Both the position numbers and the translations under genes were made by a program. The notes beneath the pieces were generated by a model. That model was not told the origin of the DNA. It searched no databases and saw only the letters and a program-made list of their open reading frames with translations. Below are positions 8,923 to 29,326 of a stretch of DNA of 30,487 nucleotides, one piece after another. This DNA comes from a virus (taxonomy: Duplodnaviria > Caudoviricetes): IMG/VR virus record IMGVR_UViG_3300037634_000844, positions 1-30,487 of that record. One strand, 5' to 3'. Each line of letters starts with the position of its first letter. Within the stretch, counting starts at the first letter, position 1.

Positions 8923-8928
8923 TAGAAT

Positions 8929-10098
8929 ATGGCATTATTAACAGAAACCGCTGCACAATATTATGCAGGTCAACAAGCTTATGTTCACAGTGCAGGTGTT
9001 GGTGTTGCACAAACACATATTTGGACTGCAGATACTCCTTTAATAGATACTACTACTAGCACTAATACAAATTTTAAAGTATTAGTTAATAATATACTTC
9101 AAGTTAGTGGAGTAAATTATACATTTATTTCTGCTACTAGTATTAGTATAGGACCAAATATTGTTGATGCTGCTGGTGCTACCGTTACTATAGATAATGG
9201 GGATATAGGAGTTATTCAATTATTAGATGATGCATTATGGGCAAATTATGGTAGTTATGAGTATATCAAAATGGATGATATAGTTAATAACTTTTTAGTA
9301 GCTTATGTAGGACAAGATAAGTTAATACCAAGTGCTAAACGAACTGATATAATGTTTCACGCTAAAAGAGGCTTACAAGAGTTTAGTTATGATACTTTAA
9401 AAAGTATTAAATCTCAAGAATTAACAATCCCTCCAAGTTTATCTGTGATAATACCACAAGATTACGTTAACTATGTTAAATTATCATGGATAGATGACTA
9501 TGGAGTTAAACATCCTATATACCCTACTACTTTAACTAGTAATCCATATACTGTACCTGTACAAGACGCATTAGGAGTGCCAACTCAAGATAGTTTAGGA
9601 GATAATTTAGAAGGAACCTCCTTAACAAATGAAAGATGGGATACTGCTAATGATAGGTTAATTAATGGAAATATAGATTTAAGTTATTTTAATGCTAATG
9701 TATATGGTTGGAATTGGGATAAATTAGCATATGGTAAAAGATATGGATTAGATCCACAAACGTCTAATAGAAACGGTTGGTTTACTATAGACGAAAGAGA
9801 AGGTAAGTTTTCATTTAGTAGTAATTTAAAAGATAGATTAATTATATTAGAATATATATCTGATGGATTATCAGTGGATTATGACATGCGAATACCTAAA
9901 ATGGCTGAAGAAGCTATTTACATGCATATAGCACATGCTATTTTATCTACGAGAAGAGGTATTCAAGAATATATAATAAGAAGATTTAAGAAAGATAGAG
10001 CAGCTGCTTTAAGAAATGCTAAAATAAGATTAAGTAATATTAAATCAGAGGAATTTACACAAGTGATGAGAGGTAAATCTAAATGGATTAAACATTAA
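8929..10098 (+). CDS. Putative second tail ring protein with an N-terminal beta domain (389 aa)
   Basis: Adaptor-like core (FHAKRGLQEFSYD, IPQDYVNYVKL, ILEYISDG, IPKMAEEAIY). The N-terminal insert KVLVNNILQVSGVNYTF...ISI resembles a common tail-associated beta module. Confidence 0.62.
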   Translation: MALLTETAAQYYAGQQAYVHSAGVGVAQTHIWTADTPLIDTTTSTNTNFKVLVNNILQVSGVNYTFISATSISIGPNIVDAAGATVTIDNGDIGVIQLLDDALWANYGSYEYIKMDDIVNNFLVAYVGQDKLIPSAKRTDIMFHAKRGLQEFSYDTLKSIKSQELTIPPSLSVIIPQDYVNYVKLSWIDDYGVKHPIYPTTLTSNPYTVPVQDALGVPTQDSLGDNLEGTSLTNERWDTANDRLINGNIDLSYFNANVYGWNWDKLAYGKRYGLDPQTSNRNGWFTIDEREGKFSFSSNLKDRLIILEYISDGLSVDYDMRIPKMAEEAIYMHIAHAILSTRRGIQEYIIRRFKKDRAAALRNAKIRLSNIKSEEFTQVMRGKSKWIKH

Positions 10099-10102
10099 TT
10101 AA

Positions 10103-13100: not shown

Positions 13101-14023
13101 TAGATTATACTGATATTAAAGTGACTGGAGGTGGTCTTCAAGATTGTACATTTGACTTAAGAGTAACAAACGTTCCTTGGCCTGGTTTAATGTCACCAGT
13201 ATTTACTGTATATGAAAACGAACCAGTGGAGTCGAAATTAGATATTTACTGGGAGACAACTACAGCAGGTTTAGTTTCAGAATTAAACACTGCTATTGTA
13301 AATTCAGATCCTTATACTCCATATGGAACATCTAGTAAGACTTGGTCATGGTTTGAAAGTGATGGATCAGGTACGGTTATTACAACAGATTTCTTCCCAA
13401 CAAATGGATTAGGAGTTAATTTAACAAATACTGCTAATAGCGGAGTGTTAAATTCTGTAACAGATTTCTTTGGTAATTCTTATTCCACTGCTTTATTTAC
13501 ATTAGTAAAAAATCCAGATGGTTCATTTAAAATAAGAACTAATAGTACTTTCTATGCTCAAATGTTATTCCCTATATTATCTTTCCCATGGAATTTTAAA
13601 ATTAACTTTACAGAAGGTGCTTCAGGAAATAGTAATTTTGTTACTATATCAGATTCAGCTGCGGTAATTAACAACTCAGAACCAGTATGGGATCCAACTT
13701 TTGTACAAGGTCCAAACGTAACACCAGCGGTACCAATAACTAGTGGTGATGCTATTAGTGTAAGTAGTGTATCTGGTCATGGTGGTGCAAGTCAAATAAT
13801 TGCAACTTTAGTAGCTACCAACGGTAGCGCAGATTTACCTTCTCAATATGATGGAGTAACCTTTACAATAGATGATACTACTAATTTTATTATTGATGGT
13901 TCTAATATTTTGTGGGTAAAAGGAGGAACTCCTGCAGGTGATTATCCAATAGTAGTAACTGTTCAAGATCTAGCTGGAGCATTTGCAGTAACTAATTTGA
14001 CGTTAACTATTACAGTTACGTAA
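10103..14023 (+). CDS. Tail stabilisation / muzzle (tail tubular B / P22 gp10-like) protein, N-terminal part, with inserted GxGY modules and C-terminal cadherin/Ig-like domains (1306 aa)
   Basis: Starts NNFIKSKMNRDLDARLLPPGEYREAWN and contains LLFWTDNRNQPRKINI, RFAYRFKFDD.EYS, NRVVYGNF and YQVGVVLSDRYGRQS, which I recognise from crAss-like stabilisation proteins. Confidence 0.78.
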   Translation: MAEIRNNFIKSKMNRDLDARLLPPGEYREAWNVSISRSEGDDVGALENVLGNLSLTDFGLSAQCTVDIIGKLMSPNSDRIFVFLTNYVDTSIDRLSNPAYGAGIECYIGVYDISANVATLLVGGTFLNFSKTHEIYGVNLINNLLFWTDNRNQPRKINIETALADPYIVGGSTGYYTEEDHISVPKYYPYKPIDLYKDITGTITSTMKDVTSEYLPPHCVTMLAEIAPGPGGLFFNFDTTFSTGPGNTIDVGDKLTIPSLGVETIINGFGGLPTTKDVSVVTGPGVQTAVGNIVYIQRPNPDYDVNWPGDKKFLNDKFVRFAYRFKFDDNEYSLISPFTQECFIPRQDGYFIADNEQRAYQSTEVKFMENKVDDIQLVIPIPDGITDFTDLETDLKVKEIDIVYKQSNESTLKVLDTLTTTDFGTTSTAFYLYDYQSRKPWRTLPQKDLIRVQDQAPVRALGQEIVANRVVYGNFIDKHTPPTTLNYNTQVSEKFTEAQGGYLRKEYPNHTLKQNRNYQVGVVLSDRYGRQSAVILSSVDTASTSSTAKGSTFFHPYKGEGSGTIDAFSYFPSLAPDKLFTPRTGFIPYSDTGNAATTWHGDSLKVLFNSTIQSPKSSTTGAPGLYNGDPTTLNYNPLGWYSYKIVVKQQQQEYYNIYFPGLLNGYIDGESKNPLAASVSEPIGHFALHSDNINKVPRDLTQVGPDQKFFRTGRPSPKEDPSYYQFVNTDGVLFTADPYTEEGELLLKTRDRQRDLDSGSIVTNASVKLYPRILNYQDIASTAVTKIYVSTAGTGYATTAGVATTGGTGSGLTVDITAGAGPVTAAVIDAAGTGYKVGDIVDISGGGTNAKVTVLEIQTAQNSQMYPKETEDVVDSIGTGTELGLWDPGVDSPYDTAPVFWGYRNNPYIAKLSLENWQLGVTGPSPYAGGQQFEITQITHPGNDYRIDSKNLAVEQKEDAGYGTGLLVDIDGIATTLTGDVDALSIAREGTGWIGSQAGVDYTDIKVTGGGLQDCTFDLRVTNVPWPGLMSPVFTVYENEPVESKLDIYWETTTAGLVSELNTAIVNSDPYTPYGTSSKTWSWFESDGSGTVITTDFFPTNGLGVNLTNTANSGVLNSVTDFFGNSYSTALFTLVKNPDGSFKIRTNSTFYAQMLFPILSFPWNFKINFTEGASGNSNFVTISDSAAVINNSEPVWDPTFVQGPNVTPAVPITSGDAISVSSVSGHGGASQIIATLVATNGSADLPSQYDGVTFTIDDTTNFIIDGSNILWVKGGTPAGDYPIVVTVQDLAGAFAVTNLTLTITVT

Positions 14024-14052
14024 GTAATATACAAAATAAGTGATTATAAATT

Positions 14053-15843
14053 ATGGCATATAGTTTAGAAGTAAGATACTTTAACGCTTTAACTCTAAAG
14101 AAAGCAGTTCAATCTTCAACTGGCACTCCAACTGGAGGTAATGCTATTCCTGTATGGCCTGGAGTAACTTGGAATCCAACAGGTTATCCTAATTTTCCTT
14201 TTGGAGAAACAGATAGTGGTGGAGCACCGCTTTATCCTTTATGGAATAGAGTTATATATCCTTTTAAAACAGGGAGATATCAATGGTATATAGAAGAATC
14301 TACTATTAAAGGAGGTTTTAATAATAATACTATGTCATTAGGTGTAAGAGCATATAGTGTTAATGAAGATATTGATAAAATAGATAAAGCCCAAAGTTTA
14401 ATTATATCTGGTTTATTAAATTCTAGAACTGGTTATAATGAAACGAATGTGTTTTCAACTGGAGAAAATATAATTAAAGATTTAGATCCTTTTGATGGTA
14501 CTATTCAAAAACTATACACGCAAGATACTAACTTATTAATATTCCAAGAAAATAAAGTAAATAAAGTATTAATAAATAAAAATACTATTTACTCTGGAGA
14601 TCAAGGAGCTGTGGATTATGTTAATACAGTGCTAGGACAAACAATTCCTTTTGCTGGAGAATATGGTATAAGTACTAATCCAGAAAGTTTTGCTATTCAT
14701 GGATTTAGAAAATATTTCACTGATAGATTTAGATCAGCAGTAATAAGATTATCTAAAGACGGTATTACAGAGATATCTGGATATGGAATGAAAGATTACT
14801 TTAGAGATCAATTAGCAACTATTACTAGTGATTGGCAGCGAAATGAAGTAAAAGGTACTGTAGTAGGTACATATGAAAGTCCTACAGATACAATTACTTT
14901 TAGTGGTATAAGTTGTTGTGATATACATATGGGAGCATTATTAGAAACATCTGCATCAACCCCAATAATTAGTGGAGCGGTAGTAACTAATTGCGTAGTG
15001 AATGGAGATTATGTAGATATCACTTTTGATGGAACATTTTCCCCAACACATTTCGAGACATTTACTAAAGGATTTTTCGTATGGTATACCCAGAGTAAAG
15101 CCGTAGGCGGTTGGGATAGTCATAATATGCATTATACAGTATCATTACAACCCAAACCAAGATGGGGTAGAGATTCAGATGGTAATATGCCACCAGCAAC
15201 ATATTCAACAACTTCATTTGAAGAATCTATTTTGGGATGGCCTAGTTTCTATACTTACATGCCTGCTTTTATAGATAGTTTAAAGAATAATTATTATTCT
15301 TTTATAGATACTAATATTTACCAACATTACGATGAAACAACCACCAATAATAGAGGTAAATACTATGGTGCTACTACGCCTGCAGAATCTAGTATAACAT
15401 TTATTTTTAATCCTAATCCTTCTATTACTAAAACATTCCAAACAATAGCTTATGAAGGTAGTAATGGTTGGGAATTAGACTCGTTTGCCTCTGATTTTGA
15501 AGGTATGGATTCAATATCTGGAGTATATTCCCAATATCAAGACACAGCAAATCCTGTAGCAAGTTATGTAGAAGGTCAATACGATTCATCTGGAAACATT
15601 TATCCTGCAGCATTAACACCACCTATATTTAGAGCTGGTTTTGATAGAAAAGAGAATAAATACGTATCTAATTTAGTAGGATCAAGTGTTCCAAGACCTG
15701 GTGAAGTAATATATGGAGCTCAATTAACAGGAGTTAAAGGATATTTAAGTACATGTAAAATACAATTAGATACTAGTACACAACCTGGAGGATTAAAAGA
15801 ATTATTCTCAGTATCAACAAGATATACTGTATCCTCTTATTAA
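14053..15843 (+). CDS. Tail stabilisation / muzzle protein, C-terminal beta-propeller-like part (596 aa)
   Basis: GTIQKLYTQDTNLLIFQENKV, GEYGISTNPESFA, YFTD..RSAVIRLSKDGITEISGYGMKDYFRD, GWPSFYTY and F.RKENKY resemble the C-terminal half of crAss-like muzzle proteins. Confidence 0.7.
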   Translation: MAYSLEVRYFNALTLKKAVQSSTGTPTGGNAIPVWPGVTWNPTGYPNFPFGETDSGGAPLYPLWNRVIYPFKTGRYQWYIEESTIKGGFNNNTMSLGVRAYSVNEDIDKIDKAQSLIISGLLNSRTGYNETNVFSTGENIIKDLDPFDGTIQKLYTQDTNLLIFQENKVNKVLINKNTIYSGDQGAVDYVNTVLGQTIPFAGEYGISTNPESFAIHGFRKYFTDRFRSAVIRLSKDGITEISGYGMKDYFRDQLATITSDWQRNEVKGTVVGTYESPTDTITFSGISCCDIHMGALLETSASTPIISGAVVTNCVVNGDYVDITFDGTFSPTHFETFTKGFFVWYTQSKAVGGWDSHNMHYTVSLQPKPRWGRDSDGNMPPATYSTTSFEESILGWPSFYTYMPAFIDSLKNNYYSFIDTNIYQHYDETTTNNRGKYYGATTPAESSITFIFNPNPSITKTFQTIAYEGSNGWELDSFASDFEGMDSISGVYSQYQDTANPVASYVEGQYDSSGNIYPAALTPPIFRAGFDRKENKYVSNLVGSSVPRPGEVIYGAQLTGVKGYLSTCKIQLDTSTQPGGLKELFSVSTRYTVSSY

Positions 15844-15853
15844 ATTAAATTAA

Positions 15854-16357
15854 ATGAAATCAGCAGTTGTAAACGAACTAGAAACAATATTTGATACCAG
15901 CTTAGCTATACCATATAAAGACAAGATAAAGTTAATAGAAGATAATCTTATAGCTAAAGCAGATGGAGAGAATATTGTAGGTAATGGTAAAGAAATTACT
16001 TATGCAGAAAATCTGTGGGAATATAAACACACATTTGCAGATGGATTATATATAAGAGAAATGAGGATGAAGCAAGGACAACTAGCTTTTTCTGCTATAC
16101 ATAAACATAGTTATGTATTTTCTCTATTATCAGGAATATTAGCTACTTCAACAGAAGATGGTATTGAAGAATTTATAGGACCATGTTATGTAATATCTCC
16201 ACGTGGCATTAAAAGAGTTGTTTACGCTATTGAAGATTGTGTAATAGCTACTATCCACTCTAATCCTACTAACACAGAAGATTTAGACGAGTTAGCAAAA
16301 ATAAATATAGCATTGAATTGGAAAGAATATAATGAATATGTTAAAAATAATAAATAA
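15854..16357 (+). CDS. Cupin-fold protein (167 aa)
   Basis: HTFADGLYIREM...G...SAIHKHS...LLSG...GP..VISPRGIKRVVYAIEDCV..TIH is a double-stranded beta-helix pattern of a phage cupin family usually found just before ejection genes. Confidence 0.72.
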   Translation: MKSAVVNELETIFDTSLAIPYKDKIKLIEDNLIAKADGENIVGNGKEITYAENLWEYKHTFADGLYIREMRMKQGQLAFSAIHKHSYVFSLLSGILATSTEDGIEEFIGPCYVISPRGIKRVVYAIEDCVIATIHSNPTNTEDLDELAKINIALNWKEYNEYVKNNK

Positions 16358-16363
16358 ATAATT

Positions 16364-17536
16364 ATGAGTTGGGCAATGATCGGCATGGCTGGTGTGCAAT
16401 TAACTACTGGTGTTATAACTAAGATGAGTGCTAATAAATCTGCTAATGAACAAAGGTTTAAAGCAAATGAAGAAGCAAAAAGGTTAAAGTTACTAGAAGC
16501 TAATCGCCAAGAAATTATAGATAAATCCGCAGATATTAGACGTATGAAAGGTCAAGTTAATAATCCTTATGCTAATCTTCAAGTTGCTACTAAAGCTGCA
16601 GATCTACAAATAGAACAAACAGATTTAGCATTAGCAAATACTTTGGATACTATCCAACGTGGTGGTATGGCAAAAGGTGGTACTGCAACTGCATTAGCCC
16701 AAGCAGCAGCTCAAGCTAAAGCTAAAATGGGGGCTACTATAGAAAATCAAGAAGCTCAAAATGCTAAACTTAGAGCACAAGGAGAAGCTAGTGCTCAAGC
16801 TCAGAAAATGCAATTAGAACAAATGGCAATTGGTGAGGAAGTTGCCTCATGGGGTAGAAGAGAAGGTAGGGAAATGCAAAGATTAAATAGAACAGCAGCA
16901 TTACAAAGAAATGCAGAGATGCAAGCTGCAGCAGATAGACAAGGTGGTACAGCAGCATTAATGGCTGGTATAGGTGGTGCTGCTACTACATTAGCAAGTG
17001 CAGACTTAAGTAAATTGAAAAAAGGTGGAACAGGAGGGATGGATGCTAAACTAGGTGATGTAACTGATCCATCTGGTGAAGGAATGTGGGGATATGGAGA
17101 AGCGCCTGATGGAACTAAAATGCATTTACCAGGAGTAGCTGGACAAGAAATGAGTATGGCACCAGATAACATAAATCAACCAAGTGCTATAACTAATGTA
17201 ACAAAAACTAATATAGGCCCACAAGGAGCTACACCTGCAGGATATGATAGAGCTGGTAATCCCACGTATGGAGGAGAAGCTTATGATTTAGCGTCTACAA
17301 CTACAGGAATAGGATTAATGCCAGCAATGGGAGATTTAGGACCGTTGGCATCTCCTGAGTTAGATTTATATCAAACAGCTCAAGGTACATTTGGTAATCC
17401 ACAAGGAAATACACAATGGGAAAAAGTAGGATTAACAGGAATGATTGATGAAAGAAAAAGATTACAACGAGCTGGAAAGTCTACTGATTATATTCAAAGT
17501 TTAATTAATGCTACTAGATCACATTATAATATATAA
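16364..17536 (+). CDS. Putative ejection / internal virion protein 1 (390 aa)
   Basis: N-terminal G/A-rich hydrophobic helix (MSWAMIGMAGVQLTTGVI), A/Q coiled coil, second hydrophobic helix (GGTAALMAGIGGAATTLA) and a G/P/T-rich tail, typical of podovirus pilot/ejection proteins. Confidence 0.65.
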   Translation: MSWAMIGMAGVQLTTGVITKMSANKSANEQRFKANEEAKRLKLLEANRQEIIDKSADIRRMKGQVNNPYANLQVATKAADLQIEQTDLALANTLDTIQRGGMAKGGTATALAQAAAQAKAKMGATIENQEAQNAKLRAQGEASAQAQKMQLEQMAIGEEVASWGRREGREMQRLNRTAALQRNAEMQAAADRQGGTAALMAGIGGAATTLASADLSKLKKGGTGGMDAKLGDVTDPSGEGMWGYGEAPDGTKMHLPGVAGQEMSMAPDNINQPSAITNVTKTNIGPQGATPAGYDRAGNPTYGGEAYDLASTTTGIGLMPAMGDLGPLASPELDLYQTAQGTFGNPQGNTQWEKVGLTGMIDERKRLQRAGKSTDYIQSLINATRSHYNI

Positions 17537-17538
17537 CA

Positions 17539-19509
17539 ATGGCAAAAAGAAATACAAATTATAGTGGGTATGATTATAGACCATCACCACAGAGACAGCA
17601 AAGACAAGCTTATGGTGCTTATGAAAATCCACAAGGAGTTATCGATTATAGATACCAAAATGTAGGTAATATTTTAACTGCTTTAAATGCTGGTATTGGT
17701 GGAGTTGTTCAAGCACAACAAGCTAGGAAACAACAAGCTGAAGATATTTTAAAACAACAAAATCAAAAGTTTGGAGATTTATTTACTGAAGAATATCTTA
17801 AAACAACAGCTAAAGAAAGAGAGTTTGGTGGATATGTAACAGGTAAAGATAGAAATGTTGTACATGAAGAAGTTGTAACTGCATTAACAGACATTGGAGA
17901 TGGATATGGTAAATGGTTAGAAGATCATCCAGAGGCAACCCAAAGAGAACGTACTATACAATTAGATAAAGCAATTGGTTCTATGCAGTTACTGAGGCAG
18001 GATTTGAGTAGCATGATGTTGGCTAAACAAGAGTATGATAAAGCTAAACAATTAAATCCAGGGGAAGTTGGGGCTATAGTACCAGGTTTTAATGATAATT
18101 TAATTTTTGGTATGAATGCTATGGATAGCAATGACCAAGACATGCATATCACTAGAGATCCAAATGGTAATTGGAGATTTACAGTTGCTAAAGTAGGTGC
18201 TGATGGAAACGCTATTTTAGGAGAAAGCACTACTATAGATATGACTGATTATAGAAATAAATCTATACAAAGTGGAGGATTTTGGAATACAGTGGAAGAG
18301 ATAGATGTACAACCTGTAGCTAATGATTTAGCTAGTATTATATATGAAAAAGCTGCAGATGGAAGTATTATATATAATGAAGATTTAACTACTACCGATT
18401 CTGCAGGGAATACTATTGTAGATATAGAAGCATTAAAAACATATACAAATCCTAATGATCCTACAGGAAAACCTATTTTTGAAACTATAGTAGAAGATGC
18501 TTTTGTAACAGGACCAGATGCTTTAAGTAAAAGATCTGGATATTGGAGGAGATTAGGTAATACAGGAGATTTTGATGAGACTGCTTATACTACTGCTATG
18601 CAAGAAAAAGTATTAGATGCTTTACCAAACTTCTTAAAAGGGCCAAAAGAAAAGAAGGCACCTACTGCTGCGGATAAAAGATTATGGTGGGAGCAAAAGA
18701 AATATAGAGATAAGCAACAACAAGATAAACTCGATAAGCAATTAAAAGCTATTCAAGCTAATAAAGATAAAACCAAGAAATATAAAGCATTTGAAGAAAC
18801 TTGGGTTGAAGCTCAAAAAGCATTTGGTGGAACTATTCAAGATAGAGAATTTGGTAATTTAGGTATTGAAAATATGCAACCTGATGAAATAGTAAATAAA
18901 TTAAATAATATTTTAGGTGTTACCGAATTTAGAGTAGAAGGTGGAGTTATTGGAAAAATAACTGATGACGATGAATTCTTAAAAGTTGAAATAAATACTG
19001 AAGACCAAATGTTGACTGAGTTATTGAAAGCCGATAAGTTTGAAAACTTCACAGCAGAAGAAAAAGAAGAATTTAAGAATATAGCAGAAACAGGAACATT
19101 TGCAGTAGAAAGTGATGAGTTAATATATACTTCTCCATTTGATATTACAGAAGAAGAGACAGTGGTAGTAGACGATATTAATCCTAATGTTAGAAATGCA
19201 ACTTGGTTTAAAGCAGCTAATAAGAAATTCAATAATTATGGAATTGATGTAGCTCAATTACCAAAAGAAGTTCGTCAACTTATAAGATCAGCAGTAACAG
19301 GTAATGAGATAGATGGTAAAAAATATAGAATTGATAACCCTGGACAAGGTGGTGGTACTAAAATTGATTGGGCTGGTATAAGTGATTTAGTACTTACAAA
19401 TAAAGATGCTATGGCAAGGATTAATGAAAGACTTAAGAAAGATATATGGAATAATTTACCTAAAGGTAGTAAAATGTTTATTGATGGTAAAATTAAAACT
19501 AAATCATAA
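17539..19509 (+). CDS. Putative ejection / internal virion protein 2 (656 aa)
   Basis: YENP motif, then an amphipathic helix (GNILTALNAGIGGVVQAQQ) and coiled coil. Lies between ejection protein 1 and the giant gene. Confidence 0.55.
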   Translation: MAKRNTNYSGYDYRPSPQRQQRQAYGAYENPQGVIDYRYQNVGNILTALNAGIGGVVQAQQARKQQAEDILKQQNQKFGDLFTEEYLKTTAKEREFGGYVTGKDRNVVHEEVVTALTDIGDGYGKWLEDHPEATQRERTIQLDKAIGSMQLLRQDLSSMMLAKQEYDKAKQLNPGEVGAIVPGFNDNLIFGMNAMDSNDQDMHITRDPNGNWRFTVAKVGADGNAILGESTTIDMTDYRNKSIQSGGFWNTVEEIDVQPVANDLASIIYEKAADGSIIYNEDLTTTDSAGNTIVDIEALKTYTNPNDPTGKPIFETIVEDAFVTGPDALSKRSGYWRRLGNTGDFDETAYTTAMQEKVLDALPNFLKGPKEKKAPTAADKRLWWEQKKYRDKQQQDKLDKQLKAIQANKDKTKKYKAFEETWVEAQKAFGGTIQDREFGNLGIENMQPDEIVNKLNNILGVTEFRVEGGVIGKITDDDEFLKVEINTEDQMLTELLKADKFENFTAEEKEEFKNIAETGTFAVESDELIYTSPFDITEEETVVVDDINPNVRNATWFKAANKKFNNYGIDVAQLPKEVRQLIRSAVTGNEIDGKKYRIDNPGQGGGTKIDWAGISDLVLTNKDAMARINERLKKDIWNNLPKGSKMFIDGKIKTKS

Positions 19510-19519: not shown

Positions 19520-22500
19520 ATGAGTGAATTTCCAGAAGATCCACGTGAAGACCCTTTTGAAGCGTTTAGTTTCTCAGTAGATACTAGTGATCCATTTGAA
19601 ATGTTTGGTAGAAATGTTCAATTAACTACACAAGAGACTGTCACTGAACAACCTGAGCAAACTACAGATTATTTCGGAGGTATGGGGTTCACAGATGAAG
19701 TGGTTACTGATGATGTAACTGTAGATACAGAAGTAGAAGAGTGGGAACCTATATATTCTAGTGATTACTACGAATCTCTTCCTATGATGAACCAAGAGAG
19801 AGCTGCATATGAACAATGGAAATTAAAACCAGATAGAGAAGCATTACCAGAAGAAATAGAAGAAGCTAAAACAGGAGTTAGTGAGGTAAAACCTTTAACG
19901 ATAAAAGATCAATTAGGTTTAAATTTTAATGTACCGTTAGAAAAAACTCAAATACAACGACAAGAAGATTTTATTGAAGGATTAAGAGATGCTACTACTA
20001 ATAAGATATTTGTAACACCAAAAGAAACAGGAGTAGAAGTAGATGAATTAACGCTTAAATATGGAGATATTTTTACCGAGCGTTCTCCAGAAAAACATCC
20101 GCATGACGCTTTTGAGCAAGTAGGAGATTGGATAGGTAATACAATTATGACTTTACTTGATGTTCCGAGAACATTAGCTGGTCAAGAAGCTGCTGCCGAT
20201 TACAGTTGGTTTGGTTATGATCCAAAAGAATTAACTGTAAGTGACAAACAATTAATACAAGGGGCAGCTCAAACAGATGCTGATTTGATAAATAAAGAAT
20301 TAAATCAAATAAATAGTCCTATTAGATATCAATGGAATAATGGAAAATTACAACCATATATAGATTATGATTCTAAAGAAATAACTAAAAATGATGTTTT
20401 AAAAGCATTTGAAATTGTAAAAGAAAAACAAAAAAAAGCTGATGAAGGAAGATTAACAAATGATGAACTATCAGTAATTAAATTTGAAAATCAATATCAA
20501 GAGGCTTTAAAAACAGGAACTCCTACTGAAATAAAAGAAGCAAAAAACAAATGGATAGAAGAATGGAAGAAATTAGGTGGAGTTAAAAGAATTTTTAGTG
20601 AAGATGGATCTTTTATTTCAAAAAAAGATGCAACACCAGCAGATGAAAAAGCTAATTCTAATTTGGATGATGAAGCTTCTCAACAATGGGGACTAAGTGA
20701 TGAACAATCAATGTTGAATGCTAAACGCGCATTAGCTAATAAATTAATATATTTATCTAAAGAAATTTCTAAAGATCCTAAAGTAATAGGAAGAGGAATG
20801 AATTGGTTAGATGCTATGAGAGAAGGAGGATTTGGTTCTACATTTGATATAAGTGGTTATTTAGAAAAGGATAATTATATAGCATTAGAAGATAATTTAA
20901 AAATAATAAATCAAGTTGGAAATGAAGGAATTATTCTCCCTGAATTAAAATATTTGCCTGGAGGAAGTATTTTAACTAATCAATTTAATAATTTACTTAA
21001 ACAATACAATGTTGTAACTCGAGCAATGCAATTAAATATGGATCCAACTACGAATATTGGATCAGGATTTGTAGAAGATATAAAGGGATTTGGAGCTCAA
21101 ATAGCTGAAAAATTTAGTCCTACAGATGTAGAAACAGCACGTGAATTAGGAAGAGAATTTGTTAGTTTTACTCAAGATGAAGTAGGAATTTCTATCACTC
21201 AAGATTTAGCTAATAAAGTTGATTTTGCTTGGGATACCGAAACTGAACGTTATGTTTTAGATAAAGATATTAGTGAACAAACGTTAGAAACTATAGTAGA
21301 AATAGGACAAGTTATGGCAGAGTTTGCTGTAGCTAGAAAAGTTATAGGAAAGAAAAATATAAAGAAGTTAGGTAATTTTGTTAGAGAATCTGCTGCCGGT
21401 AAACCACGTATTATAAGAGCTGCTGCTACTGTAAGTGCGAGTATAATAGAAGAAGCTGCTGCTATACAAGCACGAAATGTATTAATAGCACCTATCACAG
21501 GTGGAGAAGATATGAGCTTAACTTGGGCAGTTGGAGCAGGAGCTATGGGATCTGTGGCTAAATATTTTAGTCCTGCAGGAGTTACAAGTATATGGACTAC
21601 GGGAAACAAAACTGTAAATAGATTAATTACTGCTATTGGTGGTTCTCAAACTGCTAATTTATTAGCTAAACAATTAATTCAACCTGCTATAGGTACGGGA
21701 GTAATGATCGCAGGTGAGATAACAGAAAATATCCTTACGACTGATAAGGGAATGAGAGAAATATGGGAAGAAGCTAGTGATTGGGATAAATTGGCTAGTA
21801 CTTGGGCAACATTATTTGCTCTTCAAAATTCTAAAGCACCTTTAAATATAGTAAGAGAACCTTATAGAGCTGTTGAAGCTGATATATTAGCATTAGGAAA
21901 GAAAACTAGATTTACTCAAAAAGCTGCTAAAGCTTTAGGTTTAGAATCTAACTACATGGATAAAAATGAAAAAGGTGATTATATTCTTACAGAAGACAAA
22001 ATTAATAAACAATTTAAAGAAAAAAGAAAAGAAGTTATAGATTCAGAACTATCTAAAGATGAGAAGTTTGAAAAACTTAGAGAACTTACAGCTGCACGAA
22101 GAAGCATGATAGAACATCGTCAATATTTAGATATTAAAAACACTATAAAAGCTACTGAGGGAGGTAAACAAATATGGGCTGATCAGTATGTTGAAAGTAT
22201 GAATTTAGCTTATGGAAGAGAATTGACAGCAGAGAATATTGAAGGATTAGCAAATACTCCTAGTACTCAACTTACTAGATTATTAGTTAGAGATCCGAAT
22301 AATAAGTTATCTAAACCAGATCAATCTGCTTTAGCTAATAGAATAATGGCGTATAGAGAATTAGCAGCAGATTTAAGTATGGAAGCTAACTTAACAGTAG
22401 CATCACAAGGAGGGTTAAGAGGAAAAGCACGTATAAATTATTTTAAAGAAAGATTAAAACAATTAAATGCCGAACGCGATTTATTAAATGCAACTGAAGC

Positions 22501-25500
22501 TTTAAAAGATAAAAAAATAACTCAATCTATTTATGACGAGCAAATTAGTGGACTTGAAAAAACTATTGAAGATTCTAATAAAAAGATTGAAAGTATAACT
22601 GATACATATACTAAAGAATTAAAAGAATCAAAGAAGTTTGAAAAGATTTCTAAACCCTTAATAGAAAGAGCTAAAGAAGCAGGTTTTAAAATAATAGAAG
22701 ATAAAACATTAGAAGGTGAAGCAGAGATTGGTGGAGGTGTATTTAGATATAATCCTAAAAAAGCTCCAGAATTCTTTACATTAGGAGTACATGAAGTAGG
22801 TCATCCAGTTGTTAATAGAATGCTTAAAGGAAAGACTCAAGCAGAAAAAGATTCCTTTGTAGAAGAGTTCAAAAAGATATTACCAGAGAAAACTTATCGT
22901 CTTATAGAAGAAAGACTATTAGGAAGACAAAATGTAAAAGATTATAAAGAAAATCCAAATACAGTAGAATGGATGAATGTATTTTTAGATATTACAGGTA
23001 GTGGAGCTTTAAAGTACGAAGGTAATTTTTTTGGTAAAGTAAAAGATTTTCTTAATAAATATAAAAAAGGTAAAGACTATAGTTTAGATTTAAACTTTGA
23101 AAATCCAAAAGAAGTATATGAAAACCTAAAAGCATTTGCTGAAGCTGCTGGTAAAGGAAAAGCTGGAGTTGGTGAAAAAGGAGAAATGCTCGTAGAAGCT
23201 TTGAAAAAAGCTCCACAAATGGAAGGAACTCAAAAGTCTGTTACTATAGATTTAGAAAATAAAAAGAATCAAGATACTTTAAATGAACAAGTTGGAGAAA
23301 GAACTGAAGAAGGTTATTATACTATGCCTAAAAAAGAATGGTTAGGAAGTAGAGCTCATAAAATTGCAAAAAATCTAATTGATGGTGGATCATTTGATTT
23401 ATTAATTGGTAAAAAAATATTTCCAGGTAAAAAAATATACACAGAAACTAGAGAAAATATTTTAGAAGATAGTAGAGCAGAGTTAAAAAGACATTTAGAA
23501 AATTTTGACCCTACATTAAATAAAAATTTATTTGGATATCTTAATTCGTATGTAGGTGCAAAAGTTGGTACAGTTACAGGAAGAGCTAAAAAAACAGTTC
23601 CTACTGTATCTAGAGATATTCAAGTAGAAGGAAGAAAAATGCCTGAACCTGAATCTAAAGATCTTGATCCATCTGAGTTAGCAGATATTGTTTTAGCAAA
23701 AGAAAGAAAAGCTAAAGCAGAAAAAGATAAACCTAAAGAAACTGTTGCTTCTAAAGTAGGAATGCCTAAAGTTATAGTTGATAAAATAAAAGGTGAAACA
23801 TCTAGTGAAGAATATATTGAAGAAGCTGCAGAAAAAGTAGATTATAGAAAGTTGCCCGAAATTTCAACTCCTCCTGGTCCTAATCAAACCATTCCTCCCT
23901 TTCTTAGTAAATTAAAAGCTCAAATAGCTACATCAAGAAAATATAAAGAAGAAGTAGCTCAATCTATGGGTACTAGAAAAGATTACATAGATTATCTAGA
24001 TAAAAACTTTGAAAAAATAGTTAAAAATTTACCACCCTCATATTTTTCTGGATTAATAGAAAGAAAAATCACCAGTGGAGTTAAAAAAGGATTAACTTTA
24101 AAGCAAGCTATAGATGCCGTGATCTTACCTAAAAATATGATTCAAAAAGATATTGGTCAAGGTTATACTTCAAACTGGCAAGGTAAAAAAACTGTAGGAA
24201 CTAAAGCTGCGAAAACAGGTATTACTTCAGGTTTAAAAAGAATAAGATTAAATCCAAATTTTGATTTTAAAAATAAAGCTAATATTGAAGCATTTAAAAA
24301 AGCTTTTAAATCTCAAGGAAGAAAAGAAGGATTAGCAGGTCAAATAAGTGCTAAAGGAGTTGTTGATTATTTACAAAAGAACTTAGGTACTGAAAGTAAA
24401 ATAGATAAACAACTAAAAGACAGTTATGATCTTAAAGGAAGAGAATTACCTAAAGATTATGCTAAACAATTTAGAGAACAAGTTGCTAAATCTGAAGTTC
24501 AAAGATCTGCAACAGAAGAGAAAATAGAACAAGAAAAGTTAAAGGAAATAGCAAATGCTAGATTACTTAAAGAAATAGAAAAGGGGTATTTTCTAGGAGA
24601 TATGAAAGGAATGGCTAATGCCATTAAATCATTAGTTAAAGAAAATCCAGGATTAAATTTAATAATACCTAAAGAAATAAGCAAAGAAGGTATTGTTAGA
24701 GATCCTGAAGGACAAGAAATGTTAATTAATTTTACTACTAATATTTTACCTCGATATTATGGTAAAAATGTTTTACTGAGCTCAGTATGGGCAGGAACTG
24801 CATCTGGCAAAGGCATGTGGATGGATACTCGGACATTAGCAGAAGTTAGAAAACTATTTTTATCTCATGAAGATAGAGTATCACAAGAAATTCAAGAAAC
24901 TATAAACCCAGGAATGGCTTCATCAGGATTAGATGTTATGAAGACTAGTCCTTTCACAAGTAATGGTAGTAAAAAGAAATTTATAGATAAAGTAAATAAA
25001 AGTTATAAAGGATTAGATTTATTCATAGATCAATCATTTAAAATGTTAAAAGAAAACCCAGATCAATTAAGTGGATTTCTTGCTATGATGAAAAATGCAT
25101 CAGTTACTAGTAGTCATTTTTGGAGGAACTTTTCACAAGTAATAGGTAAACACGTGAACTGGGCGGATAAGGTGATGATGGATCCTAAGAAAAAAGGGAA
25201 AGGGGTAGGAGAACATGCTTTAGTTCAAAATCAAGCCGGTGAATTTATGACTAAAGCTATATTGGAATCTATAGCTAAGAAAAATCGTAATATACTTAAT
25301 ACTGCTAAAGAATTATTAAGTGAAAATTACTTTCAAATATTAATTAGTCATGGGAGTGATAATAAACTAACTGAAATAGGTTTACAATCTAGTATGCCTA
25401 AAGGATTTTGGGAAAGTTGGAATAAAGCTTTAGAAACAGGAAACGTGAAAGAAGCTTGGTCAGTATGGTCTAGATATTTTAATAAAGAAATAAATAAAAT

Positions 25501-28500
25501 TAAAGGAGCAGATGGAGAGTTAGGATTTAATCCTAATAATATAATGTTACTTAATAGAAAAACTGGAGAAATTGAAAGTTTAGCAGATACATTAGGAATA
25601 GGTGAAAAACATTTTGGTAAAGATGTTTTAAATCCTGAGATTATAGCTAAACAACAAGAACTTATTGGAGAATGGTCACGAAGAAATCCAAATTATAATA
25701 CTATAACAAAATTAAGAGAACATTTAGCTATAGATTTAGACATGCTTAATGCTAAAAGAAATGCTACTTTAAACTCTAAAAAAGAATTAGAAAAAATAGA
25801 TAACATATTTAAAGTATCAGAAAAAGCTCCTAATGAAATATTAGTACAAAAATCTAATACTTTTGATAAAGCTTTAGCAGAAGGTAGAAAACTCAAAAAA
25901 GAAATTAAAAAAGCTAGAGTATTTGATTTTGACGATACGATTGCTAAAAGTAAGAGTAAAGTATTATATGAAACTATAGATGGAGAAAAAGGTAAATTAA
26001 CACCTGAAGAATTTGCTGCTCGTGGAGAAGAATTAAAAGAAAAAGGAGTTACTTTTGATTTCTCTGAATTCAATAAAGTTGTGGAAGGAAAGAAAGGACC
26101 TTTATTTGAATTATTTAAAAGAATGAAAGAAGCTGCAGGAGATAGAGATATGTTTATTCTTACAGCAAGAAGTGGAGCTGCTGCTCCTGCTATTAAAGAG
26201 TTTTTAAATAGAATGGGTGTTGAAATTCCATTAGATCATATTACAGGATTAGGTGATAGTTCTCCTTTAGCTAAATCAGATTGGGTTGTAGGAAAAGCAG
26301 CAGAAGGTTATAATGATTTTTATTTTGCTGATGATCATTTACCTAATGTAGAAGCAGTTAAAAAAGCATTAAGTCCTTTAGAGGTAAAAGCAAAAGTTCA
26401 ACAAGCGAAAGATGCTGTTCAATTTGAAATAGATAAATTACCAGGAGAAAGTGGAACCCAATTTAGTATGACAACTAAACGTGATCTTGATTGGAAAGAA
26501 AGTACTAAAATCACAGATGAAGGTCGTGCAATGTCTAGTATGAAAGCTAAGTTTGAAGTGAAAGGCGTTCCGTATGAAATATACTTAGATTTACTAAGTG
26601 ACAAAAAAAGAGGATCATGGGATTTAGGATTTACTAATTTAAAAGATGGGAAAAGAAGTCAAGCTATAACGGGGGATGGTAATGCGTCGCAAGTTTTAAG
26701 TATAGTATCAAATGCAGTTTTTGATTTAGCTAAAAGGAAAGATGTTAATGTTTTAAATTTTTCATCTAAAGAAAAAAGTAGAACGAGACTTTATAAAACT
26801 TTAACTAATTTGTGGGCTGATAAATTAGGTTGGAATCAAAGTTTTAATTCACAACACAACATATTTCACATTGGGAAACCAGGGTTTGAAATAGGATTAA
26901 AATATAAAAAGACACCTCAAGAAACAACAGTTGAAATAGAAAAATCTAAAGATAAATTTAGTAAACAATCTAAACCAGTCAAAAAAGTATTAAATGTAAT
27001 AGATATAAAAGGAAAAGTTCAACAAGCTATAATGCAAAAGAGTAATACTCTTAATGAAGGATTTAATAAGATAATAGAAGAAAGTGCAGGAGTAGATAGA
27101 TTTAAAGTATTTTCTGATGTTAAAGCTCAAATACGAGGAGAAAAAGCTAGAAGACAAAGATTCTTTATTCCTCCATCAGCAGAAGATTTTTTAGGGTTAT
27201 TATATGCTACATTAGGAAAAGGTAAACAAGGAGAAAATCATTTAAAGTTTTATGAAGATAATTTACTTACTCCATATAGTAGAGCAATGGAAAATTTATC
27301 TACTGATAGAGTTAATTTAATGAGTGACTTTAAAGATCTTAAAAACAAATTAGATGTTCCTAAAGATCTTAAGAAAACTACTAAATCAGGATTTACTCAT
27401 GAGCAAGCAGTTAGAGTATATTTATGGAATACAACAGGTAAAGAAATACCTGGTTTATCAAAAGCTGATTTTAAAGAATTAAATGATATTGTAGAAAAGA
27501 ATTTTAGATTAAAATCTTTTGCTGATCAAATTCTTTCTATAACAAAAGGGGATGGATATTCTACTCCTAAAAAAGAATGGTCTGTAGGAACTATAACAAC
27601 TGATTTAATTGATATTCTTAACACTACTAAGCGAAGTAAATACTTAGAACCTTGGAAACAAAATGTAGATGTAATCTTTTCTAAAGAAAACCTCAACAAA
27701 CTAGAAGCGGTTTATGGTGAAAAGTATAGAGAAGCAATGGAGAATATGCTTACTAGAATGAAATCTGGTAGCAATAGAACTGCAGGAGGTAATAAACTTA
27801 GTAATCAAGTATTAGATTATATTAATAATTCTACTGGTGCTATAATGTTTTTTAATACTAGATCAGCAGTACTTCAAACCATCTCAGCAGCTAACTTTAT
27901 TAATTGGAGTTTTAATAATCCTTATAGAGCTGGTAAAGCATTTGCTAATCAACCTCAATATTGGAAAGATTTTACTGAATTAATGAATTCGGATTATTTG
28001 AAAGATAGAAGACAAGGATTAAAATTAAATATAAGTGAATCTGAGATATCTAATGCTGCAAAAACTTCTAAAAATAAAGCTAAAGCTGTATTAAATTATA
28101 TACTTGAAAAAGGATATTTACCTACTAAATTTGCAGATAGTTTTGCTATAGCTTCTGGTGGTGCTACGTTTTATAGAAATAGGATAATAGATCTTATGAA
28201 AAACGAAGGTAAAACTGAAGTTGAAGCTAAGAAAATAGCAATGGAAGAATTTAGAAAGAATGCGGAAATTTCTCAACAATCTTCTAATCCATCTAAAATA
28301 TCTCAACAACAATCTAGTGACTTAGGAAGAGTTGTATTACAATTCGTCAATACTCCTATGCAGTATGCTAGAATACAAAAGCGAGCTATTCAAGATATTG
28401 CTAATGGTAGAGGAGATATGAAAACTAATGCAGGTAAAGTAGCTTATTATATGTTTTTGCAAAATATGATATTCAATGCATTGCAACAAGGATTATTTGC

Positions 28501-29326
28501 TTTAGGTTTTGGTGATGATAAGATTGATGATAAAGAAGAAGAGAAATTATACGAAGGTTTAAATGGAATGTTAGATTCTAGTTTAAGAGGTTTAGGTATG
28601 GCAGGGGTTACTGCTTCAGTATTGAAAAACTTAGGATTAGATATTTATGACAGGTCTAAAAGAGGACGACCAGAATATTCAGATGCTTGGATTAAATTAT
28701 TAGAATTTTCTCCTGCTATTAAAAGTAAACTTGGTAAATTAAAATCTGCAGCATGGCCATTTGATTCTAAGAAAAGAAGAGCAGAAGTATTTGAAAAAGG
28801 TTTTAGTTTAGATAATCCTGCTTATGAATCTATGGCTAAGGTTATAACTGCTACAACTAATCTTCCAGTTGATAGATTGTTTAGTAAAATTAATAATCTT
28901 AAAAATGCTTTCGCTGATGAAGCTGAAGCTTGGCAATCTGTTGCTATGGTTTTAGGATGGCCTGAGTGGCAACTAAAAACTACTAAACAAGAAGTTGCAG
29001 AAGAGAAAAAAGAATTAAAAGAAGATCCTTCGGGTTATAATGCGTGGCAACAAAAGTCTATTTTAAAACAATATGGATATAATGAAAAAGAAATAAAGAA
29101 ACTTAAAAATGAAGAATCGAGAGTAAAAGAAATATTAAAATCTCAAAAAGAAAATAACAATCAATATATACCTTTAAAAATAGATAAACCATGGGACGTT
29201 AAAATGAAAGAAGAAGGAGCTACTAAAGAAGAGATAAAGAAAAAAAGAGAAGAAAAAAAAGGAGGATATAAATCTACAAAAGGAGGTTTTAAAGATTCTT
29301 CATTTAAAACAACAACATTTAAGTAG
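19520..29326 (+). CDS. Giant multidomain (polyvalent-type) ejected virion protein, 3268 aa
   Basis: Uninterrupted 9.8-kb ORF and third gene of the ejection cluster. Contains HEVGH (22790), a sigma-region-2-like segment (about 23460-23570), an EH/MP/RY module (about 25210-25480), HAD motifs (25925-26335), an SRTRLY module (26777) and a helical, hydrophobic C-terminal region. Confidence 0.85.
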   Translation: MSEFPEDPREDPFEAFSFSVDTSDPFEMFGRNVQLTTQETVTEQPEQTTDYFGGMGFTDEVVTDDVTVDTEVEEWEPIYSSDYYESLPMMNQERAAYEQWKLKPDREALPEEIEEAKTGVSEVKPLTIKDQLGLNFNVPLEKTQIQRQEDFIEGLRDATTNKIFVTPKETGVEVDELTLKYGDIFTERSPEKHPHDAFEQVGDWIGNTIMTLLDVPRTLAGQEAAADYSWFGYDPKELTVSDKQLIQGAAQTDADLINKELNQINSPIRYQWNNGKLQPYIDYDSKEITKNDVLKAFEIVKEKQKKADEGRLTNDELSVIKFENQYQEALKTGTPTEIKEAKNKWIEEWKKLGGVKRIFSEDGSFISKKDATPADEKANSNLDDEASQQWGLSDEQSMLNAKRALANKLIYLSKEISKDPKVIGRGMNWLDAMREGGFGSTFDISGYLEKDNYIALEDNLKIINQVGNEGIILPELKYLPGGSILTNQFNNLLKQYNVVTRAMQLNMDPTTNIGSGFVEDIKGFGAQIAEKFSPTDVETARELGREFVSFTQDEVGISITQDLANKVDFAWDTETERYVLDKDISEQTLETIVEIGQVMAEFAVARKVIGKKNIKKLGNFVRESAAGKPRIIRAAATVSASIIEEAAAIQARNVLIAPITGGEDMSLTWAVGAGAMGSVAKYFSPAGVTSIWTTGNKTVNRLITAIGGSQTANLLAKQLIQPAIGTGVMIAGEITENILTTDKGMREIWEEASDWDKLASTWATLFALQNSKAPLNIVREPYRAVEADILALGKKTRFTQKAAKALGLESNYMDKNEKGDYILTEDKINKQFKEKRKEVIDSELSKDEKFEKLRELTAARRSMIEHRQYLDIKNTIKATEGGKQIWADQYVESMNLAYGRELTAENIEGLANTPSTQLTRLLVRDPNNKLSKPDQSALANRIMAYRELAADLSMEANLTVASQGGLRGKARINYFKERLKQLNAERDLLNATEALKDKKITQSIYDEQISGLEKTIEDSNKKIESITDTYTKELKESKKFEKISKPLIERAKEAGFKIIEDKTLEGEAEIGGGVFRYNPKKAPEFFTLGVHEVGHPVVNRMLKGKTQAEKDSFVEEFKKILPEKTYRLIEERLLGRQNVKDYKENPNTVEWMNVFLDITGSGALKYEGNFFGKVKDFLNKYKKGKDYSLDLNFENPKEVYENLKAFAEAAGKGKAGVGEKGEMLVEALKKAPQMEGTQKSVTIDLENKKNQDTLNEQVGERTEEGYYTMPKKEWLGSRAHKIAKNLIDGGSFDLLIGKKIFPGKKIYTETRENILEDSRAELKRHLENFDPTLNKNLFGYLNSYVGAKVGTVTGRAKKTVPTVSRDIQVEGRKMPEPESKDLDPSELADIVLAKERKAKAEKDKPKETVASKVGMPKVIVDKIKGETSSEEYIEEAAEKVDYRKLPEISTPPGPNQTIPPFLSKLKAQIATSRKYKEEVAQSMGTRKDYIDYLDKNFEKIVKNLPPSYFSGLIERKITSGVKKGLTLKQAIDAVILPKNMIQKDIGQGYTSNWQGKKTVGTKAAKTGITSGLKRIRLNPNFDFKNKANIEAFKKAFKSQGRKEGLAGQISAKGVVDYLQKNLGTESKIDKQLKDSYDLKGRELPKDYAKQFREQVAKSEVQRSATEEKIEQEKLKEIANARLLKEIEKGYFLGDMKGMANAIKSLVKENPGLNLIIPKEISKEGIVRDPEGQEMLINFTTNILPRYYGKNVLLSSVWAGTASGKGMWMDTRTLAEVRKLFLSHEDRVSQEIQETINPGMASSGLDVMKTSPFTSNGSKKKFIDKVNKSYKGLDLFIDQSFKMLKENPDQLSGFLAMMKNASVTSSHFWRNFSQVIGKHVNWADKVMMDPKKKGKGVGEHALVQNQAGEFMTKAILESIAKKNRNILNTAKELLSENYFQILISHGSDNKLTEIGLQSSMPKGFWESWNKALETGNVKEAWSVWSRYFNKEINKIKGADGELGFNPNNIMLLNRKTGEIESLADTLGIGEKHFGKDVLNPEIIAKQQELIGEWSRRNPNYNTITKLREHLAIDLDMLNAKRNATLNSKKELEKIDNIFKVSEKAPNEILVQKSNTFDKALAEGRKLKKEIKKARVFDFDDTIAKSKSKVLYETIDGEKGKLTPEEFAARGEELKEKGVTFDFSEFNKVVEGKKGPLFELFKRMKEAAGDRDMFILTARSGAAAPAIKEFLNRMGVEIPLDHITGLGDSSPLAKSDWVVGKAAEGYNDFYFADDHLPNVEAVKKALSPLEVKAKVQQAKDAVQFEIDKLPGESGTQFSMTTKRDLDWKESTKITDEGRAMSSMKAKFEVKGVPYEIYLDLLSDKKRGSWDLGFTNLKDGKRSQAITGDGNASQVLSIVSNAVFDLAKRKDVNVLNFSSKEKSRTRLYKTLTNLWADKLGWNQSFNSQHNIFHIGKPGFEIGLKYKKTPQETTVEIEKSKDKFSKQSKPVKKVLNVIDIKGKVQQAIMQKSNTLNEGFNKIIEESAGVDRFKVFSDVKAQIRGEKARRQRFFIPPSAEDFLGLLYATLGKGKQGENHLKFYEDNLLTPYSRAMENLSTDRVNLMSDFKDLKNKLDVPKDLKKTTKSGFTHEQAVRVYLWNTTGKEIPGLSKADFKELNDIVEKNFRLKSFADQILSITKGDGYSTPKKEWSVGTITTDLIDILNTTKRSKYLEPWKQNVDVIFSKENLNKLEAVYGEKYREAMENMLTRMKSGSNRTAGGNKLSNQVLDYINNSTGAIMFFNTRSAVLQTISAANFINWSFNNPYRAGKAFANQPQYWKDFTELMNSDYLKDRRQGLKLNISESEISNAAKTSKNKAKAVLNYILEKGYLPTKFADSFAIASGGATFYRNRIIDLMKNEGKTEVEAKKIAMEEFRKNAEISQQSSNPSKISQQQSSDLGRVVLQFVNTPMQYARIQKRAIQDIANGRGDMKTNAGKVAYYMFLQNMIFNALQQGLFALGFGDDKIDDKEEEKLYEGLNGMLDSSLRGLGMAGVTASVLKNLGLDIYDRSKRGRPEYSDAWIKLLEFSPAIKSKLGKLKSAAWPFDSKKRRAEVFEKGFSLDNPAYESMAKVITATTNLPVDRLFSKINNLKNAFADEAEAWQSVAMVLGWPEWQLKTTKQEVAEEKKELKEDPSGYNAWQQKSILKQYGYNEKEIKKLKNEESRVKEILKSQKENNNQYIPLKIDKPWDVKMKEEGATKEEIKKKREEKKGGYKSTKGGFKDSSFKTTTFK
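22650..23150 (+). other. Zincin-like metallopeptidase domain within the giant protein
   Basis: Beta strands (AEIGGGVFRYNP), then TLGVHEVGH (HExxH at 22790-22804), a downstream Glu in NTVEW as candidate third ligand, and an FFGKVKDFL helix. Boundaries approximate. Confidence 0.75.
25900..26410 (+). other. HAD-superfamily phosphatase domain within the giant protein
   Basis: All four HAD motifs in order: I VFDFDDTI (D at 25925), II ILTARS (T at 26162), III K in PLAKSDW, IV YFADD (26330-26335). Confidence 0.88.
26392..27027 (+). repeat. Exact 15-bp direct repeat AAAAGTTCAACAAGC (26392-26406 and 27013-27027) inside a duplicated 17-aa segment
   Basis: VKKALSPLEVKAKVQQA (26357-26407) versus VKKVLNVIDIKGKVQQA (26978-27028): 10/17 identical, 621 bp (207 codons) apart and in frame. 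Confidence 0.85.

Follow-up and report, generated by a model that had tools for sequence, protein, structure and literature searches.

Junction motifs downstream of an embedded metallopeptidase: a candidate self-processing code in a giant phage protein

Can a tailed phage carry a giant protein that cuts itself into separate effectors, in the manner of RNA-virus polyproteins, in which one open reading frame (ORF) combines an embedded cysteine or serine protease with repeated junction motifs? The question is raised by the virus record IMGVR_UViG_3300037634_000844 (Duplodnaviria; Caudoviricetes), represented here by a single stretch of 30,487 nucleotides (hereafter the window). An ORF on its plus strand (19520-29326), the strand of all features described below, encodes a giant protein of 3,268 amino acids (aa) in which a zincin-like, MPTase-type metallopeptidase (aa ~1035-1230, 22622..23209), delimited by alignment and structural modelling, is followed by five copies of a Q-x-S-x-T motif. 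An earlier reading of the sequence alone (hereafter the sequence-only reading) had proposed that these motifs lie at module boundaries and form an autoproteolytic cleavage code, read by the embedded peptidase or by a maturation protease so as to release individual effectors. Comparison with relatives indicates that the motif marks module junctions across the family as a genuine signal held at the level of the protein, and the existence of a code is well supported. The best reading of this signal, and a probable one, is that of a recognition site cut by the protein's own embedded zinc peptidase.

A junction motif spelled differently in each protein

The giant protein consists, in order, of an N-terminal region, the peptidase, site A, a sigma-like module, site B, a second module, site C, a HAD-family module, site D, an optional insert, site E and a C-terminal region. 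Site A (QKSVT, aa 1238, 23231..23245) lies directly behind the peptidase, followed by sites B (QRSAT, aa 1661, 24500..24514), C (QKSNT, aa 2110, 25847..25861), D (QFSMT, aa 2314, 26459..26473), which opens the optional inserted module, and E (QKSNT, aa 2506, 27035..27049), the best-conserved junction, which precedes the C-terminal region. A sequence scan confirmed that these five motifs, all at the positions named in the sequence-only reading, are the only QxSxT occurrences in the protein and that none lies upstream of the peptidase; all are downstream of HEVGH (aa 1091, 22790..22804), a zinc-binding motif identified by sequence and alignment and the sole HExxH of the protein. The 15 other ORFs of the window (6,786 aa), including the capsid and scaffold-position proteins, contain no QxSxT. 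Three of the five sites have TCT as the serine codon and two have AGT; between the two copies of QKSNT, both the lysine and the serine codons differ. In 5,000 shuffles of the protein the mean count was 0.46, and a fraction of 0.0002 reached five, for a pattern that had been picked post hoc; a motif count in a single sequence is weak evidence, and it is the homologues that carry the claim.

The comparative analysis started from 201 sequences, comprising 120 proteins (the best of 991 matches), 80 loci (the best of 465) and the query. Both anchors were present in 196 of these; requiring a peptidase motif and sufficient C-terminal sequence left 189, and removal of redundancy left 137. Across the 137 relatives the junctions are conserved as x-x-S-x-x, with a spelling specific to each protein: KFS in 59 proteins, ASKD in 26, NxSEK in 20, QRS in 13, including the window protein, and KSS in 4. 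Analogous motifs, for which the sequence-only reading had proposed looking in homologues, do mark the same junctions, with Q-x-S-x-T being just one local spelling. Within a protein, linkers that are not homologous to each other are alike (z=15.0 for E and C, 10.7 for E and A, 4.8 for C and A), the five control pairings of the same test yielding z values of at most 1.8. When E is left out, the own spelling of the five groups occurs between the peptidase and E at densities of 1.74, 2.11, 1.16, 0.58 and 0.43 per 1,000 aa, compared with at most 0.21 for foreign spellings and at most 0.11 for the own spelling in the two terminal regions; the table of spelling by group is diagonal, a pattern limited to the part of the protein that lies between peptidase and E. 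Site by site, the own spelling is found at A, B and C in 10, 13 and 4 of the 13 QRS proteins, in 20, 14 and 17 of the 26 ASKD proteins and in 13, 9 and 14 of the 20 NxSEK proteins, and foreign spellings in no more than two proteins. Neighbouring ORFs from 40 loci contained two own-spelling motifs in 50,007 aa.

The codons used at identical motif residues were the same in 163 of 318 comparisons from 26 proteins, against 173 expected, and serine codons of the TCN and AGY families are mixed within proteins. Since codon sharing does not exceed chance, the likeness of the motifs appears to be held at the protein level. A motif repeated at the junctions between modules, as in self-processing polyproteins, was found.

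The signal was recovered in a held-out set of 149 new proteins, of which 90 had the C-terminal anchor and 84 remained after removal of four near-copies of the training set and two proteins with short C-termini. In these 84 proteins, E is similar to the middle region of the same protein (z=7.5, control 0.0). [KR]xS is found at E in 56 of the 84 (background 0.117), and in 19 of the 38 in which the upstream module is not HAD.

The spelling can also be followed in inserted modules. An insert between HAD and E is present in 32 of the 137 relatives, and one family of closely similar inserts opens with the spelling of its host in 21 of 22 cases (ASKDL in 9/9 ASKD hosts, KFSK in 7/7 KFS hosts and NFSEK in 5/5 NxSEK hosts). 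The insert type of the window protein opens with QFSMT here and with NFSMR, SFSMN, KFSMD, RFSMT or SASMK in other hosts, and each of the three tandem insert copies of relative P0046 opens with KFS. Insertion duplicates the junction region: in the window protein the C-terminal segment of HAD recurs at 26960..27028, where it ends in KVQQA and travels with the insert, and such a segment also follows the listed inserts in relatives. Inserts labelled PF06414 (zeta-toxin-like, P-loop kinase) were observed after HAD in P0016, P0046, P0101 and P0111; in P0016 the insert is followed by QKSVA and QRSSN.

Sites B and C differ in their standing within the family. At the place equivalent to B, [QE]RSxT is found in 13/13 QRS-group proteins; a conserved [QE]KSLG about 40 aa before B in 11 of these 13, which the window protein lacks, may belong to the module fold or represent an extra site. 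Site C is specific to the lineage of the window protein and P0001/L001, its QKSNT aligning with DEANK, DKANT or EKANT in relatives. The family motif sits about 11-12 residues before it, at an ancestral junction (C', 25811..25825) that reads NMSER, NTSEK, MASKD, KFSKS or QRSKT in relatives and has degenerated to KVSEK in the window protein, where it is modelled as coil. Site C as a conserved family junction was rejected on this alignment and on the helix predicted at the site, QKSNT having been either gained anew there or produced by chance. Of the five motifs placed at module boundaries in the sequence-only reading, the one at 25847 does not represent the ancestral junction. A second case of a site changing position is seen at the start of the insert in nine ASKD hosts (P0019, P0023, P0025, P0028 and a further five), where IDSER or IESER is left of the old junction and ASKDL is found six residues upstream.

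What the spelling follows

The relatives are mosaics, and the modules between and around the sites have been exchanged among phages. P0002 and P0006 are mostly at least 90% identical over module 2 and HAD, but their E motifs are QRSET and NASEK, respectively; P0003 and P0020 have module 2 in common, and theirs are QRSNT and YASKD. For pairs whose HAD and C-terminal flanks are alike, similarity of the E motif is 0.83 when the peptidases are alike (143 pairs) and 0.31 when they are unlike (922 pairs), compared with 0.93 versus 0.86 and 0.80 versus 0.62 in downstream control windows, which hardly change. The strongest peak linked to the peptidase type coincides with the E motif itself (aa 2505-2509), with further peaks at aa 2101-2110 and 2121-2130. 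On trees inferred with FastTree, the five spellings (122 of the 137 rows) require 6 changes on the peptidase tree, as against 13 on the tree of the sigma-like module, 22 on that of module 2, 16 on that of HAD and 25 and 29 on those of two C-terminal blocks. At E, the last junction, the spelling accords with the tree of the N-terminal half, ~1,400 residues away, and not with those of E's own flanks. Independent pairs drawn on the flank trees agree in every instance (6/6, 7/7 and 5/5 for HAD; 8/8, 9/9 and 9/9 for the C-terminal region), for peptidase groups chosen after the spellings had been seen. The best single control columns of the C-terminal region match the peptidase groups at F1 values of 0.40-0.59, versus 0.83-0.98 beside E. 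Linkage of a patch of fewer than 10 residues across 1,400 residues, while its flanks recombine, points to selection for a match. By these comparisons, the determinant of the spelling maps to the N-terminal half as a whole, which holds the peptidase; neither trees nor recombinants resolved the peptidase from the region upstream of it.

The catalytic residues of the peptidase itself are conserved. In an alignment of 66 rows at 11-22% identity (one row at 80%), E1092, H1095 and E1150 are invariant and H1091 is kept in at least 90%, E1150 (22967-22969) being the candidate third ligand according to the alignment. The structural model (mean pLDDT 66.7) comprises strands at 52-55, 63-66 and 69-72, followed by helices at 80-96 and 143-156 (model numbering), and thus presents the three-stranded sheet, HExxH helix and later Glu helix by which MPTases are recognized. 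The derived profile matches 1,752 clusters at 50% identity, and HExxH is kept in 149/149 matches that were selected by that same profile. When further relatives were sought, those with the window's own peptidase type were limited to P0001, P0002 and one locus. None of the LPD/MPTase models in Pfam matches the window protein; for the peptidase no Pfam match rises above cut-off, and Peptidase_M78 matches 3 of the 66 alignment rows weakly. Sequence searches of the PDB returned no match, and neither did a Foldseek search with the peptidase model return a significant one; the VIA fold search gave best Z scores of 4.3-4.5, including MATCAP (rmsd 5.4, 144 residues aligned), where a Z under 8 is not evidence. 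The weak rows of the fold searches, which fall below significance, include the zinc peptidases MATCAP, HtpX, ERAP1 and PprI. Variants of the active site occur in relatives that keep the junction motifs: EExxH in P0074, P0086, P0093, L028, L044, L046, L060 and L064, HExxxH in P0007, P0039, P0050, P0104 and L008, and HDxxH in P0021.

Proposed self-cutting and its rivals

The embedded peptidase is favoured as the simplest reader of the motif: it would be sequence-specific, it belongs to the linked half, its catalytic residues are conserved, and the first site comes immediately after it. It would cut behind itself and between the modules, freeing the sigma-like protein, module 2, the HAD phosphatase, the optional insert and the C-terminal part. 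Since no site lies upstream of the peptidase, it would stay joined to the N-terminal virion part while releasing everything behind it. Cutting would most plausibly follow packaging, either inside the head or once the protein has been ejected, since any piece released sooner would no longer be tied to the N-terminal virion part. If the cut is assumed to fall near the serine, the predicted pieces measure 139, 47.5, 50.7, 22.6, 21.8 and 86.6 kDa, and the 50.7 and 22.6 kDa pieces may remain joined if site C is unused. We lean, by a modest measure, towards a broader picture in which a large family of flavobacterial-type podophages inject a self-cutting polyprotein governed by a lock-and-key code: each peptidase lineage would read its own five-residue spelling, traded cassettes would be kept or re-spelled to match, and new sites would arise where the junction brought in by a cassette does not match, QKSNT at 25847 being a candidate example.

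Several observations weigh against self-cutting or limit the evidence for it. QxSxT ranks 12th among the 30,730 gapped three-residue patterns observed in the window protein; its excess over the shuffled expectation stands, at a modest level after the post hoc choice, and the count in one protein was rejected as proof on account of this look-elsewhere rank. In the AlphaFold2 models, which covered sites A, C, D and E, the expected location of the sites in low-pLDDT linkers was borne out for A, in coil beyond the final helix of the peptidase (pLDDT 46-56), and for D, in a disordered stretch (pLDDT 26-31); E, drawn as helix where a low-confidence stretch ends (block pLDDT 54), is a borderline linker, and C lies inside a confident predicted helix (pLDDT 82-89). 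Among the relatives, 15 of the 137 proteins remain unclassified, fitting no spelling class, just four of the 13 QRS proteins bear their own spelling at C, P0002 retains NMSER at C', and the exception among the inserts is P0004, the sole QRS host of that insert family, which has kept NFSEK at D. In the held-out set, the resemblance between E and A is weak (z=2.9, control 1.4), and 28 of the 84 proteins lack [KR]xS at E. P0021 has HDMLH in place of HExxH, yet retains SFSMN and SFSKN. The peak at aa 2121-2130 (25880-25909), before the HAD core, tracks the peptidase type among pairs with alike flanks and lies outside what the self-cutting reading explains. Two blocks upstream of the peptidase likewise require 6 changes each, the recombinants found between these blocks and the peptidase all fall inside one spelling, and the choice of peptidase groups for the pair test was informed by the spellings. 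Lastly, N4 vRNAP, ArdC and TraC1 are described in the text of PMC5512222 as carrying MPTases and yet being packaged or transferred uncut.

Part of this evidence would also fit a signal that is not cut at all, read by the N-terminal region or by a linked cargo protein as a docking, unfolding or pause site that meters the modules through the tail channel, with the peptidase acting on a host target or the cell wall. We regard this explanation as unlikely. In its favour, the spelling is as closely linked to the N-terminal blocks as to the peptidase, and in P0021 the motifs persist alongside HDMLH; wall degradation has been proposed in the phi24B preprint (10.64898/2026.04.10.717836) for the peptidase of a similar giant protein, and the crAss001 cargo is modelled as being ejected partly unfolded, with cleavage going unmentioned in the cargo account of PMC10172136. 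A metering signal would leave unaddressed, however, that every site lies downstream of the peptidase and the first directly behind it, and one site per junction suits the separation of modules better than metering. The HExxH-less proteins phi38:1 gp101 and Panino CDS69 are, moreover, free of a comparable repeated junction motif in a scan of 3-4-mers, which is a weak test. The self-cutting reading is also to be set against cleavage by another enzyme, either a separate phage protease of the head-maturation type inherited with the N-terminal half, or a host protease. Prohead proteases of giant phages do cut several head proteins, according to the part of PMC10052503 devoted to them, and the sequence spans the 30-kb window only, beyond which another protease gene may lie. 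Nonetheless, the maturation protease offered as an alternative in the sequence-only reading is a weak candidate: a motif common to capsid, scaffold and several head proteins, as prohead proteases would require, was not found, the capsid, scaffold-position and other neighbouring proteins being devoid of it save for the two own-spelling matches among neighbours noted above. No protease family was matched among the other ORFs of the window, and a host enzyme has no evident reason to follow the N-terminal half in phages that trade the flanking DNA. Cleavage by a separate enzyme is, on balance, decidedly improbable.

Two explanations dispense with a reader altogether. The sites coincide with exchange boundaries and the insert brings a duplicated HAD tail, as might be expected if the motifs were by-products of DNA repeats or of gene conversion at the joints where modules are swapped by recombination; the codon comparison largely refutes this origin, which was rejected and retains very little probability, and sites have moreover shifted position while keeping their spelling. 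Chance, aided by a generic helix-capping or linker preference, could account for the unremarkable look-elsewhere rank in a single protein and, on its own, for site C. It is refuted for A, B, D and E by the diagonal spelling table, the linkage to the peptidase half and the held-out replication, and its probability as a general account is close to nil.

Modules, genome context and known systems

The modules set apart by the sites are unrelated to one another, as in the polyvalent proteins discussed below, and comprise the peptidase, a weakly sigma-like module, a HAD module and a DUF6934-like module in one polypeptide. The N-terminal region (aa 1-1019, 19520..22576) contains no QxSxT, and its relatives match giant virion proteins of cultured phages, including some that lack a peptidase. 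Module 1 (23246..24499) is weakly sigma-factor-like (PHROG 234, late sigma, E 0.037; Atlas Sigma70_r2 cluster, 0.91, a weak match), and this weak similarity to sigma-70 region 2 sits within a probably injected protein. Module 2 (24515..25810) is, by its mosaic identities, the most freely exchanged, and yielded no usable match in Pfam, PHROG or Atlas. Module 3 (25895..26437) is predicted to be a HAD-family phosphatase (DFDDT) resembling PNK phosphatases (PHROG 415, E 7e-9), and its Foldseek match is to class C acid phosphatase folds (E 1.6e-3, prob 0.99). Module 4 (26474..26959), the optional insert containing SRTRLY, is DUF6934-like (PF22028, E 1.7e-4, below its cut-off; PHROG 6387 and 16075). 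The conserved C-terminal region (27050..29323, ~760 aa) has almost no own-spelling motifs and matched no known family in Pfam and PHROG searches.

Polyvalent proteins were defined by Iyer et al. (2017; PMC5512222), who proposed that MPTases release their domains autoproteolytically and drew an analogy with RNA-virus polyproteins. The idea of polyprotein self-processing put forward in the sequence-only reading is therefore not new; the junction sites are, in turn, not named in the consulted text of that work, which contains no recognition motif, junction code or co-variation of peptidase and site, never uses "linker" and has "cleavage site" only in the title of a reference. No junction code was described in the titles and abstract openings found, and the supplementary alignments of Iyer et al. 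may bear on novelty. The window protein resembles their polyvalent proteins in being giant, virion-associated and built of unrelated domains around an HExxH..E peptidase, and it is of phage origin and encoded among virion genes. It differs from RNA-virus polyproteins in having a metallopeptidase, in being carried in the virion of a double-stranded DNA phage and in having modules exchanged between phages, and cleavage is here a prediction. Prohead-protease maturation (T4 gp21, phiKZ gp175, SPN3US gp245) likewise involves cutting of tailed-phage virion proteins directed by short motifs, with a separate protease acting on many head proteins, whereas the motif of the window is found within one polypeptide, downstream of an embedded metallopeptidase. 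The crAss001 proteins gp45-gp50 are alike in being encoded after the muzzle gene, carried in the head and ejected, and differ in being related to RNA polymerase; their processing is not discussed in the account that PMC10172136 gives of them. If correct, the self-cutting reading would supply named candidate sites for the self-processing predicted since 2017, define the actual mature proteins within giant ORFs and predict the products of phage polyvalent proteins, and explain how injected effectors are swapped as cassettes. It would also reveal a natural library of many short-motif-specific metallopeptidases whose sites can be read from the genome.

The window is a podophage virion block with crAss-type muzzle genes. 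The plus-strand genes at 1..19509 encode terminase, portal, a scaffold-position protein, major capsid protein, ring and muzzle proteins and two cargo-position proteins; these last two, of medium size, precede the giant ORF, which is the third of three genes behind the tail block. Capsid and portal are ~41% identical to those of Elemovirus (NC_055854), the portal is 34% identical to that of Cellulophaga phage phi38:1, and both proteins are also related to those of phi38:1 and Maribacter phage Panino. Elemovirus gp18 and phi38:1 gp101, both annotated as "structural protein", share the gene position of the giant ORF, and Panino CDS69 is a giant protein at the equivalent position. The product of the giant ORF is thus likely to be an ejection or cargo polyvalent protein, and we infer its packaging and ejection from gene position and from the annotation of its syntenic counterparts. 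Over the N-terminal region, Elemo gp18, phi38:1 gp101 and Panino CDS69 match family members at E values of 1e-25 to 1e-6, these being matches to relatives of the window protein and not to the window protein itself. The homologous N-terminal regions of phi38:1 gp101 and Panino CDS69 occur without HExxH. In Elemo gp18 (L085, 2052-13136) the peptidase is present with HEIFH (profile E 5.7e-14), and the downstream modules differ from those of the window protein. RFQ is found there 140 aa past HExxH, with RQQ and RMQ further along; RxQ as a junction motif was rejected, its five occurrences against 2.2 expected not being significant. Linkers of the RFS/RFQ type may occur in other polyvalent proteins. 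A search of 50,697 phage records for cultured close relatives of the module region returned one weak match only. Upstream of the giant ORF, the muzzle-like gene is split into two ORFs (10103-14023 and 14053-15843) that correspond to one long ORF in Elemovirus and phi38:1; the first matches the N-terminal part of crAss_MUZ, the second matches MUZ_C, and PHROG 14478 is found in both.

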